Positions 317 through 4,860 of a stretch of DNA of 4,860 bases are shown here, piece after piece. The translations under genes and the position numbers were made by a program. Within the stretch, counting starts at the first letter, position 1. Every line of letters starts with the position of its first letter. This DNA comes from a virus (Duplodnaviria; Heunggongvirae; Uroviricota; Caudoviricetes). Where the stretch lies: the IMG/VR virus record IMGVR_UViG_2690316267_000015; one strand, written 5' to 3'. The notes beneath the pieces were generated by a model. It saw nothing but the letters and a program-made list of their open reading frames with translations, was not told where the DNA came from and searched no databases.

Positions 317-907
317 ATGTCTCGAATTTTTGCTTACTGTCGGATATCAACGCTGGATCAGACCACCGAAAATCAACGCCGGGAAATCGAAAGTGCAGGT
401 TTTAAAATCAAACCTCAGCAAATAATCGAAGAACACATTAGCGGCTCAGCAGCAACCAGTGAGCGTCCTGGTTTTAACCGGTTGCTTGCTCGCCTGAAAT
501 GTGGTGATCAATTGATTGTGACAAAACTGGATCGCCTTGGTTGTAATGCAATGGATATCAGGAAAACAGTGGAACAACTGACCGAAACAGGTATCAGAGT
601 GCATTGCTTAGCATTGGGGGGCATTGACCTGACCAGTCCAACAGGAAAAATGATGATGCACGTAATTTCAGCAGTCGCTGAATTTGAACGAGACCTTTTA
701 CTTGAACGCACTCATTCCGGGATAGTAAGAGCCCGCGGCGCAGGGAAACGTTTTGGTCGACCACCTGTGTTAAATGAAGAACAGAAACAGGTGGTATTCG
801 AACGAATTAAGTCAGGTGTAAGTATAAGTGCCATTGCCCGGGAATTCAAAACCTCGCGGCAAACCATTTTAAGAGCCAAAGCAAAACTTCAGACACCTGA
901 CATATAA
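317..907 (+). CDS. pinQ: Serine-recombinase DNA invertase, Pin/Hin/Gin/Cin family (196 aa)
   Basis: The 196-aa ORF begins [15 protein letters not shown], with the catalytic serine in the conserved R-I-S-T-x-D-Q motif. It has a resolvase-type catalytic domain and a C-terminal helix-turn-helix ([17 protein letters not shown]). I recognise it as the PinQ/PinR type of E. coli cryptic prophages. The symbol pinQ rather than pinR is chosen from the neighbouring genes. Confidence 0.95.
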
Positions 908-1004
908 AAAATAATCTCGGTGTGAGATGCTTTACGTCTTCCAAGCCCCCTTCCTTGCCGTAAATGGAGAGATACATCTAATTATAGAATTTATATGTTT
1001 TACC

Positions 1005-1580: not shown

Positions 1581-1888
1581 TATGCAAGCCTCACAATATA
1601 GTTAAATGCGATGTTTTTGACGGTGTTTTCCGCGTTACCAGCAGCGTTAACGGTGATGGTATGTCCATGTGAACCAATCGCAACGGAGTGCGTATGAGCA
1701 CCAATACCGACAGTATGTGCGTGTGCACCTGCGCTTGCAGCAGTACCCGATACAGAGTGCGTATGAGCGCCTGCAGAAGAAGTGTTAACACTGTATTTAG
1801 AATAATCAGGTGATCCACTTCCCGGAGCACCACTGGAACCACCTGAAACAAATGTCATCGAATGGGTATGTGCACCGGCTGTCCCCAT
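1580..1888 (-). pseudogene. stfQ: Side tail fibre protein, C-terminal fragment only (102 codons from an internal ATG)
   Basis: The translation contains five GAHTHS-like His-box repeats ([35 protein letters not shown]) and ends ...[26 protein letters not shown], typical of lambdoid Stf and T4 gp37-like fibre tips. Upstream of the ATG at 1888 this frame is out-of-frame J sequence, so the N-terminal about 90 percent of a normal Stf is absent. Confidence 0.8.
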
Positions 1889-3222
1889 GCATTTACCGCC
1901 CGGACTGTCAGCCTGTAATTTCCCAGCGCCAGCTGCGTGAAGCGATATGTGGTTTCCGTCGTCCGGGCCGTGCTGACCAACCGCTCACTGCCGTCGTCCG
2001 CTGCCACGGTCAGGCGAAGCATAAAGCTCACCCCCTTCACCACCTTCGGCGTGTCCCAGCGCGCCAGCACCTGGTATTCCCCGCTGTCTGCGGTGACTTC
2101 TGCGGTCAGGTGCTGAACTGCTGGCGGCGTGACACCATTCACCGTGCCGCTCTGGTCACCGTCAAAGTGCGCCCCGTTATCCACGATGGCTTCTTTCTCC
2201 GGTACATGCTGCACGGCAGTGATGGCATACGTACCGTCATCGTTCTCACGGATACTCACACAGCGGAACAGGCGCTGACGCAGCGTCGGCAGCTTCAGCC
2301 CCCACACGCTGTACTCGGCAACGCCGTCAGGAACCCGGCTCACTTTCACCTTCACGCCGTCGGTGACGGACTGGACCTCCACGCTCACCGGATTACCCTG
2401 CCCGTCAACCAGGCTTATCAGCGTGGTGCCGGAGGATGGCAGCGTGATTTCACGGTCGAGCGTCAGTGTCCGCGTCTGGCTGTTCACCGCCAGCACGCGC
2501 CCGCCGATGCTGATCCCCGCATAGTCATCATCACAGATTTCAATGACATCACCTGGTACATGGCGAAGCCCTTCGGCACCCACGCTGAAGTCCACGGTCT
2601 GCGTTTCCAGCAGTTCCGTTTTAATCAGCCACAGCCCGGCTCGGTGCGCCTGCCCCCGCCTGGTACAGCCAAAGGCATCCATCTTCGTGACGTTACGACC
2701 GTAACGGGCAATGGCCTGCGTGTCCTCCACAAGCTCTGTCGCCGTCTCCCAGCCGTTATCCGGGTCAATCCAGTTCACCTCAACGGCATTATGGCGGTCC
2801 TTCAGGGCGCTGAAGCTGTAGCGGAACGGCGCGCCATCATCCGGCATCACCACATTACTGCGGTTATAGGTCCACACCTTATCTGATGGTCGGTCCTGCA
2901 CGAACGTCAGCGTCTGCCCGTTCCATACCGGCATACAGCGCATCGCCGAGCAGAAATCACTGAGAACATCCCACGCCTTACGCTGTGTGGTCAGCCAGGC
3001 ATTACAGGTGATGCGCGGCTCCGTGCCGCCAAAACCGTCCGGCACCGACTGGTCGCAACACTGGCCGATGACATACAGCGCCCATTTATCCACATCTGCC
3101 GCACCAAGACGTTTACCCATGCCGTAGCGCGGGTGGCTGGAGATCTGTCTCGCTGGCCTGCCGCAGTTCTTCAACTTCCCGGCGCAGCTTTTCGTTCTCA
3201 ATTTCAGCATCCCTTTCGGCAT
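1855..3222 (-). pseudogene. Lambda J-like host specificity (central tail fibre) protein, internal fragment
   Basis: From roughly 3141 down to 1879 the translation (...YGMGKRLGAADVDKWALYVIGQCCDQ...GQTLTFVQDRPSDKVWTYNRSNVVMPDDGAPFRYSFSALKDRHNAVEVNWIDPDNGWETATELVEDTQAIARYGRNVTKMDAFGC...RAVNAWGQ) matches the middle third of lambda gpJ as I recall it. The ATG at 3222 lies inside Nu1-derived DNA and has no convincing Shine-Dalgarno sequence. The J C-terminal receptor-binding region and N-terminal region are missing. Confidence 0.8.
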
Positions 3223-3370
3223 ACCATTTTATGACGGCGGCAGAATCATAAAGCACCTCATTACCCTTGCCACCGCCTCGCAGAACGGGCATTCCCTGTT
3301 CCTGCCAGTTCTGAATGGTACGGATACTCGCACCGAAAATGTCAGCCAGCTGCTTTTTGTTGACTTCCAT
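3113..3370 (-). pseudogene. nohQ: Terminase small subunit Nu1 homolog, N-terminal DNA-binding fragment (Nu1 residues about 1-79, then out-of-frame tail)
   Basis: MEVNKKQLADIFGASIRTIQNWQEQGMPVLRGGGKGNEVLYDSAAVIKWYAERDAEIENEKLRREVEELRQASE is near-identical to the lambda gpNu1 N-terminus as I recall it. Homology stops near 3134; the remaining 6 codons (PALRHG) are not Nu1. The ATG sits about 189 bp from cosN, as in lambda. Confidence 0.85.
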
Positions 3371-3390
3371 TGTTCATTCCACGGACAAAA

Positions 3391-3595
3391 ACAGAGAAAG
3401 GAAACGACAAAGGCCAAAAAGCCCGCTTTCAGCACCTGTCGTTTCCTTTCTTTTCAGGGGGTATTTTAAATAAAAACATTAAGTTACGACGAAGAAGAAC
3501 GGAAACACCTTAAACCGGAAAATTTTCATAAATAGCGAAAACCCGCGAGGTCGCCGCCCCGTAACCTGTCGGATCACCGGAAAGGACCCGTAAAG
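3391..3595 (-). other. cos: Lambda-type cohesive end site (cos): cosB with R1, I1, R2, R3, then cosN, then the cosQ-side flank
   Basis: On the - strand the sequence reads GGGCGGCGACCTCGCGGGTTTTCGCTATTTATGAAAATTTTCCGGTTTAAGG..., which is the lambda left end as I recall it. R-site-like 16-mers lie at 3391-3406 (R1, - orientation), 3440-3455 (CGTTTCCTTTCTTTTC, R2, + orientation) and 3492-3507 (R3, - orientation, one mismatch to lambda). An AT-rich IHF-like stretch lies at 3461-3485. The right-end flank CGTAACCTGTCGGATCACCGGAAAGGACCCG (3560-3590) matches the lambda right end. Confidence 0.85.
3548..3559. other. cosN: cosN 12-nt cohesive-end sequence (AGGTCGCCGCCC on +, GGGCGGCGACCT on -)
   Basis: Exact match to the lambda 12-nt 5' overhang sequence, with lambda-identical flanks on both sides. 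Confidence 0.85.
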
Positions 3596-4611: not shown

Positions 4612-4794
4612 TCAGATTAAATTAATCTTGACATCATAGCTTTCAAGACCCGTCATTTTTTCCCGTGCGGTAAACTGAATACTGGTAACTTCTTTCCCGG
4701 TCTTTTTCTTAAGTTCAATAATTTTTTTTGTTATATATTCAGAAATATCTGCTTCTGCTTTTGTTTTTAAGGAAGGTGCGAATAAGCAGGTCAT
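4612..4794 (-). CDS. gnsB: Gns-family protein (GnsA/GnsB-like), 60 aa from the ATG at 4794; the frame stays open upstream to the window edge
   Basis: The C-terminal two thirds (ISEYITKKIIELKKKTGKEVTSIQFTAREKMTGLESYDVKINLI) closely resemble GnsA/GnsB as I recall them (…KNTGKEVSEIRFTAREKMTGLESYDVKIKIM). GGGAAG lies just upstream of the ATG at 4794. The ORF-track version (4612..4860) begins at a GTG at the window edge, so the true start is uncertain. Confidence 0.75.
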   Translation of the reverse strand: MTCLFAPSLKTKAEADISEYITKKIIELKKKTGKEVTSIQFTAREKMTGLESYDVKINLI

Positions 4795-4860
4795 TTCTTC
4801 CCAAGCTGACTCGCTGATTAAAATTTCTCGGATCTGGGCCGATTTTTTTCCCGCAAACAC

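Follow-up and report, generated by a model that had tools for sequence, protein, structure and literature searches.

We asked why pinQ, a gene named after the Pin invertase of e14, stands at the tail-fibre end of a lambdoid prophage without any invertible segment beside it. The stretch of DNA analyzed here, hereafter called the window, comprises 4,860 nucleotides of the virus record IMGVR_UViG_2690316267_000015 and carries pinQ at positions 317–907 on the + strand, as an open reading frame (ORF) of 196 amino acids with the Pfam domains Resolvase and HTH_7 that is annotated as pinQ in E. coli genomes. The whole window belongs to the Qin prophage of E. coli, of which it represents the tail-fibre end, since a megablast search of 5,426 complete E. 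coli genomes matched it to the Qin prophage of strain SCPM-O-B-12142 with 100% coverage at 99.9% identity; the match in K-12 MG1655 was split in two pieces, with 70% coverage. A preliminary description of this locus had started from an invertase of the Gin/Cin/Pin type, to be expected beside an invertible fibre segment. That premise proved to be wrong, for the gene is a resolvase of a Tn3-family transposon, and as the resolvase gene left over from such an element it is not accompanied by an invertible segment. Positions 117–950 of the window form an 834-bp transposase-less relic, made up of a degenerate left terminal inverted repeat (IR-L'), vestiges of a res region, tnpR and a degenerate right terminal inverted repeat (IR-R'). 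Taken as a whole, we consider it quite probable that this is the relic of a Tn5403-like transposon of the Tn3 family, that pinQ is its tnpR gene with an impaired catalytic function, and that the gene was never associated with an invertible fibre segment. That pinQ is a named, long-annotated gene with no local target was already known; its transposon origin and the substitution to Cys76 described below were not found in the literature searched.

A transposase-less relic at positions 117–950

The intact counterpart of the relic was found on plasmids. On the E. coli plasmid pOkiPb01709_1 (L004), a PinQ homolog is encoded divergently from a Tn3-family transposase of 994 amino acids (NCBIfam transpos_Tn3, NF033527, 1193 bits), and this tnpA–tnpR unit is bounded by 53-nt inverted repeats (IRs) that are 96% complementary and start with GGGGTCCGCTTGGAAAACGGAAAATATCCCACGCTAAG. 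In two independent insertions the 3,815-bp unit is flanked by a 5-bp duplication without any mismatch (TAATA in one and AAGTA in the other), which shows it to be a genuine mobile transposon of the Tn3 family whose content is limited to tnpA, res and tnpR. In the intact element these follow each other as an IR of the 38-bp type starting with GGGG, tnpA, res, the divergent tnpR and a second IR. An identical TnpR protein (P0014) adjoins that tnpA in seven out of eight places, representing at least four flanking contexts, and in a Shewanella copy (L014), which has the same IR, the identities are 84% for tnpA and 77% for the adjoining tnpR. The tnpA–tnpR arrangement was also seen in a remnant in Photorhabdus, and variants were found on IncN and IncFIB plasmids of Enterobacter and Klebsiella. 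Tn5403 has been described in the literature as a cryptic Tn3-family transposon making 5-bp duplications, and the resolvase adjoining it has already been labelled ‘pinR’ (‘Tn5403-pinR’) in the plasmid literature (PMC13253593).

The window proved to be homologous to the plasmid transposon from about 237 to 946, that is, beyond the stop codon of pinQ and into the right IR. When the transposon IR was scanned over the whole window on both strands, the two top matches were positions 906–950 on the − strand (IR-R', matching the transposon IR in 32 of 41 positions with a score of 42, and 78% identical to the IR consensus) and positions 117–163 on the + strand (IR-L', 30 of 44 positions, score 28), inverted with respect to each other and bracketing pinQ. 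None of 300 dinucleotide shuffles of the whole window reached the score of IR-R', and the score of IR-L' was reached by 5 of 2000 dinucleotide shuffles of the 316-nt region upstream of pinQ. IR-R', the outer end of which reads GGGG on the − strand, extends over the stop codon of pinQ, an overlap that the intact copies show as well. With the ends of the relic set at GGGG, identical copies of TTCCT are left immediately outside of it at 112–116 and 951–955, as a target-site duplication that is kept in 72 of 83 related loci, and the same definition of the ends gave TAATA and AAGTA, respectively, on both sides of the intact copies. This placement of the ends also explains a motif in the spacer between pin and tfa that had been noted as loosely resembling a crossover site. 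The motif as such is present, with TTTACG at 931–936 and CGTAAA at 959–964 around CTTCCAAGCCCCCTTCCTTG at 938–957, but the latter is the outer end of the right IR together with the target duplication, because ends set at GGGG leave TTCCT outside of both. The 6-bp palindrome of that spacer is no terminator, and its predicted fold was not unusual (z = −1.3).

No transposase sequence was found in the window or in related prophages, and inverted-repeat searches of three related prophage or phage loci for a tnpA remnant or a left IR further upstream were negative. A tblastn search with TnpA against the fetched loci gave strong matches only for the plasmid, Shewanella and Photorhabdus, with weak matches in Mycoavidus (L015) and Oxalobacteraceae (L017). 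To judge from their sequences, the IRs of the relic are probably too decayed for mobilisation.

Parts of the res region were still recognisable in the relic. Six copies of the transposon share three dyads between tnpA and tnpR, having the half-sites TGTCCGAAA and TTTCGGACA, which we take to resemble the res half-sites of gamma-delta and Tn3, and a TATAAT box is located between the second and third dyads in all six. Positions 237–310 of the window align to res sites II and III, with half-sites agreeing in 6/9, 7/9 and 8/9 positions. Res site II, which in the transposon consists of TGTCCGAAA, 14 nt and TTTCGGACA, is found as a vestige with the same spacing at 244–275 on the + strand (TGCACAAAA at 244–252, 14 nt and TTTCTGAGA at 267–275; 6/9 and 7/9), and the right half-site of res site III is found at 298–306 on the + strand (TTTCGTATA compared to TTTCGTACA). 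Between the two sites lies the −10-like sequence TATGAT (281–286, + strand; TATAAT in the transposon copies), which is likely to be the promoter of tnpR; a consensus scan did not call it. Alignment to the six copies together with a half-site scan suggested a possible right half-site of res site I at 221–229 on the + strand (TTTCGAACG compared to TTTCGTACA), which is weak, clear homology beginning only at 237 under stricter scoring. The left half of res site I was unrecognisable and the left half-sites of sites II and III were degenerate. A scan of the window for TGTCCGAAA, allowing at most two mismatches, yielded 10 matches compared to 17 expected, which by itself is without significance, and only positions that agree with the alignment are meaningful.

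The relationships of the PinQ protein agreed with this assignment. Its Pfam matches (Resolvase, 3.6e-36; HTH_7, 3.8e-11) reflect a fold common to all resolvases and are thus non-discriminating, and it could be aligned over its full length to the Gin structures 4m6f and 3uj3. PinQ was, however, 83% identical to TnpR of the 3,815-bp transposon (84% at the protein level and 83% at the DNA level in the plasmid comparison), compared to 36% for Gin, 38–41% for PinE and 33% for gamma-delta resolvase; between Gin and PinE the identity is 77%, and between Gin and gamma-delta resolvase 40%. A database search gave thousands of homologs at 77–85% identity in Enterobacterales, Shewanella and other genera, many of them plasmid-borne. 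The Din invertases (Gin of Mu and D108, Cin of P1, Pin of e14 and Hin of Salmonella) do share with PinQ the build of a small serine recombinase having a catalytic N-terminus, a GRPP arm motif (that of PinQ resembles the one in Gin) and a C-terminal helix-turn-helix, and they are likewise phage-borne and located beside tail-fibre genes. They differ from PinQ in showing only 36–41% identity to it, in having crossover sites, none of which was found in the window, and in turning the 5' end of their gene toward the fibre segment, where pinQ instead has its 3' end. The helix-turn-helix of PinQ is almost unchanged as compared to that of the transposon TnpR, its recognition helix is unlike those of Gin (VALSTLYKK) and PinE (VGVSTLYKR), and its nearest relatives are transposon-borne. 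The label ‘invertase’ hence fitted neither the orientation of the gene, with its 3' end facing tfa, nor its kinship, and the remaining resolvase gene owes its misleading name to a weak similarity to Pin.

TnpR of the Tn5403-like plasmid transposons, which carry only tnpA and tnpR, resembles PinQ in having 83–84% identity, a length of 196 amino acids and a near-identical helix-turn-helix, and these transposons share with the relic the stop codon over a GGGG-terminated IR, the upstream res-like dyads with a −10 box and the 5-bp duplication. The relic differs from them in lacking tnpA, in the degeneration of both IRs, in the loss of res site I and in having an essential Arg replaced by Cys, and it is located in a lambdoid prophage, whereas they are found on enterobacterial plasmids. 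The elements known as TIMEs (PMC4133298) are similar to the relic in having Tn3-type IRs around a short element without tnpA, with a 5-bp duplication, but they are gene-free and a few hundred bp in size, whereas the relic retains an intact tnpR and a partial res.

Two further derivatives of such transposons were observed. On a colicin/microcin plasmid contig (L114), positions 6001–6637 hold another relic of the transposon described above that is independent of the one in the window and likewise lacks a transposase gene. Here the identical TnpR (P0014) has an intact right IR after it; the left IR and tnpA are absent and a PemK/MazE toxin–antitoxin pair is adjacent. At positions 427–1431 of L119, an IS110-like element of the IS4321 family occupies the very left end of a related transposon of the Tn3 family, where it has replaced the outer IR sequence. 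The IS4321 group targets the terminal IRs of transposons of the Tn21 subgroup.

With regards to an invertible segment, the preliminary description had found only one tfa gene, one fibre tip and no convincing pair of gix/hix-like sites, and this was borne out. The window has one tfa gene at 1005–1580 and one C-terminal fibre fragment at 1580–1888, both on the − strand, and inverted-repeat, pix and core-motif searches of the window for a site pair were all negative. There was no long inverted-repeat pair around tfa and the fibre tip in the window, the pix 16-mer of e14 had no match in the window at up to three mismatches, and the AAACCNNGGTTT core (AAACC-NN-GGTTT, of the gix/hix/pix type) had two matches in the window compared to 3.0 expected, neither of them near pin, tfa or stf. 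Two control loci showed how such a system is arranged. In e14, pix is found 55–80 bp upstream of the pinE start codon, and in D108 annotated repeats delimit the G segment, and gin begins 55 bp past the right one. The 5' end of the recombinase gene adjoins the segment in e14 and D108; at the Qin locus it is the 3' end of pinQ that faces tfa, and tfa was convergent on pin in the annotated loci viewed (L001, L002, L003 and L123–L125). A crude scan for degenerate Fis motifs in pairs 46–50 bp apart found none in pinQ and one in gin, and none in the pinE control either, which makes the scan non-discriminating. In a published comparison the whole Qin and Rac prophages were searched by BLAST against E. 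coli genomes and inversions were reported only in e14 (PMC12529663).

An invertible fibre switch of the Mu/P1/e14 type could in principle have stood here and have lost its second tip, second tfa and crossover sites through deletion, leaving pinQ as its remnant. The location of pinQ beside stf and tfa in a heavily deleted prophage would agree with this, as would the extra tfa fragments found past pin in some related prophages. We nevertheless hold it to be highly improbable. Intact prophages and phage Turner have a full-length stf–tfa with the same single-copy layout, with pin convergent on tfa and with no alternative tip, and no inverted crossover-site pair was found in the three related intact prophage or phage loci searched. 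The extra tfa fragments are found on both sides of a methyltransferase gene, also where a prophage lacks pin. Furthermore, transposon IRs and a 5-bp duplication stand on either side of pinQ, the product of which has only 36–41% identity to Din invertases. One of the options given in the preliminary description, that of a relic, could accordingly be retained, but in view of the IRs, the 5-bp duplication, the res vestiges and the 83% identity to TnpR it is the relic of a Tn3-family transposon and of no invertible system.

Cys76 and the function of PinQ

We next considered the catalytic residues of PinQ. The codon for Ser11 (TCA, 347–349, + strand) is intact, as aligned to Gin and gamma-delta resolvase, and this residue was invariant in 120 homologs; PinQ furthermore retains Y7, R9, D72 and R73. 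Codon 76 (TGT, 542–544, + strand), at the position of an essential Arg (R71 of Tn3 resolvase), encodes Cys, and this codon is CGT in the transposon copies. In alignments with the respective structures the motif KLDRLG-R of Gin and gamma-delta resolvase is thus KLDRLG-C in PinQ, and the catalytic set (the equivalents of Y6, R8, S10, D67, R68 and R71 in Tn3) is incomplete. Of the earlier statement that both reading frame and catalytic motif look intact, the first part stood, with a whole ORF of 196 amino acids, and the second did not, as Cys76 replaces Arg in DRLG-R. Inactivating substitutions among the Pin catalytic residues had been named in the same description as something that would speak against its view, and Cys76, at an essential Arg position, is probably a substitution of this kind. 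Of 121 aligned sequences (PinQ itself and 120 homologs), 115 had Arg at position 76, and Cys was restricted to E. coli prophage clusters. Among intact prophage or phage copies 88 of 89 had Cys76, as did phage Turner, and every transposon copy had Arg. The divergent prophage allele L124 (84% protein identity) also carries Cys76, and the substitution would therefore be old within the prophage lineage.

Arg-69 of Sin, at the equivalent position, has been suggested to act as the general acid. In Tn3 resolvase, R71 is among six residues whose mutation abolishes recombination, and the R71A and R71K variants gave no resolution in vivo and had a cleavage rate about 1000-fold lower (PMC2794168). The ratio of nonsynonymous to synonymous substitution rates (dN/dS) for pinQ was 0.38 in comparison with the divergent Cys allele (dS 0.22) and 0.16 in comparison with the transposon gene; by this measure PinQ is constrained, albeit less so than its ancestor. 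From these sequence comparisons we infer that strand cleavage by PinQ is severely impaired and that the protein is kept mainly for its binding to DNA, the latter because its helix-turn-helix is near-identical to that of the transposon TnpR. Probable binding sites of PinQ are the res vestiges in front of pinQ, which cover the promoter of that gene; the res sites of incoming related transposons may possibly be bound as well.

PinQ could alternatively be a working resolvase with a functional res, resolving either phage or prophage multimers or the cointegrates of co-resident transposons. Its ORF is conserved with a dN/dS below 1, parts of res sites II and III retain their spacing, and exchange with plasmid transposon copies does occur, as seen in the mosaic alleles L123 and L125 described below, all of which would suit a resolvase at work. 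The left half of res site I, and hence the crossover site, is however unrecognisable, the left half-sites of res II and III are degenerate, Cys76 occupies the essential Arg position and, to our knowledge, lambdoid phages need no resolvase. We thus find a working resolvase very unlikely.

A number of points weigh against our own interpretation, with pinQ as the impaired tnpR of a transposon relic. IR-L' is marginal when judged over the whole window, where 17 of 300 shuffles reached its score; it is 68% identical to the IR consensus and its outer GGGG is now TGAG. The end of IR-R' can be placed only if 3 bp are taken to have been lost directly inward of its GGGG. In strict local alignments positions 164–236 were without clear homology to the transposon, leaving the deletion junction and res site I undefined, and an empty site, with the flanks joined by a single TTCCT, was absent, there being no such place at ≥80% coverage in the 5,426 E. 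coli genomes. The name ‘Tn5403-like’ rests on the labels used in the plasmid papers and not on the reference sequence of Tn5403. No measurement of the effect of Cys at the R71 position was found in the literature for any serine recombinase. By a naive offset method, which may have mistaken some indels for breaks, the ORF was intact in 89 of 106 sampled copies, and because it is mostly intact, with a dN/dS of 0.16–0.38, PinQ is not drifting freely, which suggests that it still does something. Finally, in a study of defence against phage T2, inversion of the e14 P segment as determined by quantitative PCR rose from 30% in wild type to 88% with pCA24N-pinQ, and a pinQ deletion strain was more sensitive to T2 (PMC12529663).

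The same study (Kirigo et al., Nucleic Acids Research 2025; PMC12529663) reported that overproduction of PinQ protects against T2, that survivors carry an inverted 1797-bp P segment and that the effect is gone in strains with deletions of stfP, stfE or e14. Action in trans on an invertible element elsewhere, an option that had also been raised for this locus in the preliminary description, has thus been published for the e14 P segment. These data would be explained by PinQ being an active invertase that acts in trans on the pix sites of that segment, where the flip makes a chimeric StfE2 that blocks adsorption of T2; the intact ORF under purifying selection and the Gin-like GRPP arm motif would also be in line with this. 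Several points speak against PinQ as the catalyst, though. In the pinE single mutant the P segment was locked despite intact pinQ and pinR, and in the text consulted the overproduction of PinQ was reported in pinE+ backgrounds only (PMC12529663). A reversible invertase should give a ratio near 50:50, so that a value of 88% suggests selection or an indirect effect. PinQ belongs to the TnpR clade, at 83% identity compared to 41% for PinE, with a recognition helix unlike those of Gin and PinE, and the sites of that clade are of the TGTCCGAAA type, unlike pix. Cys76 also stands where mutation of the Arg abolishes recombination by Tn3 resolvase (PMC2794168). The genome that is 99.9% identical to the window has icd beside iraM and no e14 there, and the e14 block (part of the P segment together with pinE, at ≥80% coverage) was found in at least 170 genomes, a lower bound as inverted copies split the match, compared to 2,731 of 5,426 genomes for the relic. 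The catalytic residues are undiscussed in PMC12529663 and the word ‘arginine’ is absent from its text. Direct catalysis of e14 P-segment inversion by PinQ thus fits the data poorly, and we consider it unlikely.

Returning to a resolvase descendant with impaired catalysis, we tentatively propose, with rather less assurance than for its transposon origin, that PinQ and PinR, found in about half of the E. coli genomes including K-12, would be catalytically dead descendants kept as DNA-binding proteins. They might act at the res of Tn5403-like transposons that enter the cell, either as repressors or as decoys, or they might regulate neighbouring prophage genes, with the inversion of the e14 P segment carried out by PinE and with PinQ acting indirectly or through selection.

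In K-12 the annotation of both pinQ and pinR is that of a Pin-like invertase, and the phage-defence model from 2025 treats PinQ as an invertase (PMC12529663). Its origin as a transposon resolvase, the absence of a cognate segment and Cys76 alter the function to be expected of PinQ as well as the controls needed by that model, and the transposon origin of pinQ and pinR also explains why plasmid transposon resolvases are automatically annotated as ‘pinR’. The scope of the result is that of a corrected annotation and of a mechanism being questioned, with no major new question opened.

Distribution and history of the relic

The relic, as found at ≥80% coverage in the 2,731 genomes mentioned above, was mostly more than 99% identical, and it was also present in the free phage Turner. 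As it is this widespread at such identity, occurs in phage Turner and has no surviving empty site, the distribution points to a single old insertion that has spread with lambdoid phages. One copy of a Tn5403-like transposon would have transposed into the intergenic region between ydfK and tfa of an ancestral lambdoid phage, thereby duplicating TTCCT, and a later internal deletion would have taken tnpA together with the crossover half of res. Left behind would then be IR-L', the parts of res II and III with the tnpR promoter, tnpR itself (now pinQ or pinR) and IR-R'. The ancestral role of pinQ would have been to resolve cointegrates at res and to repress its own promoter. Direct observations cover the homology to the transposon with its IRs and the duplication, the missing tnpA, and the Cys substitution with its distribution; the order of events is what we infer.

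Two attempts at defining the relic by other comparisons were rejected. Comparing prophages with and without pin did not help in setting its boundary, the indel being a 1.7-kb block (ynfT–ydfK–pin) that exceeds the relic and is uninformative, and the partial matches H163 and H165, considered as intermediates, turned out to be truncations by IS1 and IS3.

Two alleles in prophage context, L123 and L125, carry Arg76 and were found to be mosaics, the interior of which is identical to the tnpR of the plasmid transposon. In L123 (5001–5591) and L125 (38–628) the flanks, the IRs and the 3' end are of the prophage type, and the interior restores Arg76. Their composition indicates gene conversion or homologous exchange between a plasmid-borne transposon and the chromosomal relic.

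In the K-12-like genome CP178308.1 (L007 and L013), two copies of the relic, with pinR in Rac and pinQ in Qin, are located about 200 kb apart in opposite orientation. Recombination between the two copies would invert a large segment if the enzyme and its sites were active. A class I S-adenosylmethionine-dependent methyltransferase gene was seen between C-terminal fragments of tfa at 6234–7260 of L002 and 2930–4113 of L121, in prophages either with or without pin. In the pin+ prophages the 1.7-kb ynfT–ydfK–pin block is located between this methyltransferase unit and the full-length tfa.

Surroundings of the relic in the prophage

The genes next to the relic are those of a heavily deleted prophage, in which J, stf and nu1 are all present as fragments. 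The nearest neighbour is the tail-fibre assembly gene tfaQ (1005–1580, − strand; Pfam Caudo_TAP and genome annotation), which lies outside of the relic with 54 bp between its stop codon and the right IR. It is followed by the C-terminal fragment of a side tail fibre gene (stfQ remnant, 1580–1888, − strand), also outside of the relic, having a Pfam Phage_fiber repeat and being annotated as a partial tail fibre protein. Next to the stfQ remnant, as judged from Pfam and annotation, comes an internal fragment of the tail-tip protein J on the − strand, and then a truncated nu1/nohA (3113–3370, − strand). The remaining genes in the window, assigned by the same means, are in order ynfO, ydfO and a GnsB-like gene. 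Immediately to the left of the window, the annotation of the nearest genome has the cold-shock gene ydfK.

Deletions in the prophage have produced a fusion of three fragments at 1855–3222 of the window on the − strand, with junctions near 1880 and at 3113–3140. It joins ~81 codons from the start of nu1, an internal part of J in which the domains Phage-tail_3 and Ig_J are found, and ~100 codons from the end of the side tail fibre gene, and in the strain of the window the J fragment is ~1.2 kb longer than in K-12. Within the fibre tip fragment, a 20-nt unit encoding the GxHxH-type ‘Phage_fiber’ repeat occurs three times (1683–1876, − strand). The GnsB-like toxin gene is located at the right edge of the window (4612–4860), and in the nearest genome the IS5-like element ISKpn26 lies just beyond it (10612–11898 of L001).

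A perfect 15-bp inverted repeat was, finally, found at 3395–3409 and 3437–3451 (AGAAAGGAAACGACA and TGTCGTTTCCTTTCT). It lies within positions 3370–3570 on the − strand, upstream of the truncated nu1/nohA, a region that we take to be a cos region of the lambda type. The reverse complement of 3515–3560, GGGGCGGCGACCTCGCGGGTTTTCGCTATTTATGAAAATTTTCCGG, is presumably the cosN-like sequence, and the 15-bp repeat in our view resembles the terminase-binding repeats of cosB. If so, the prophage would have retained its packaging site despite a broken terminase gene.

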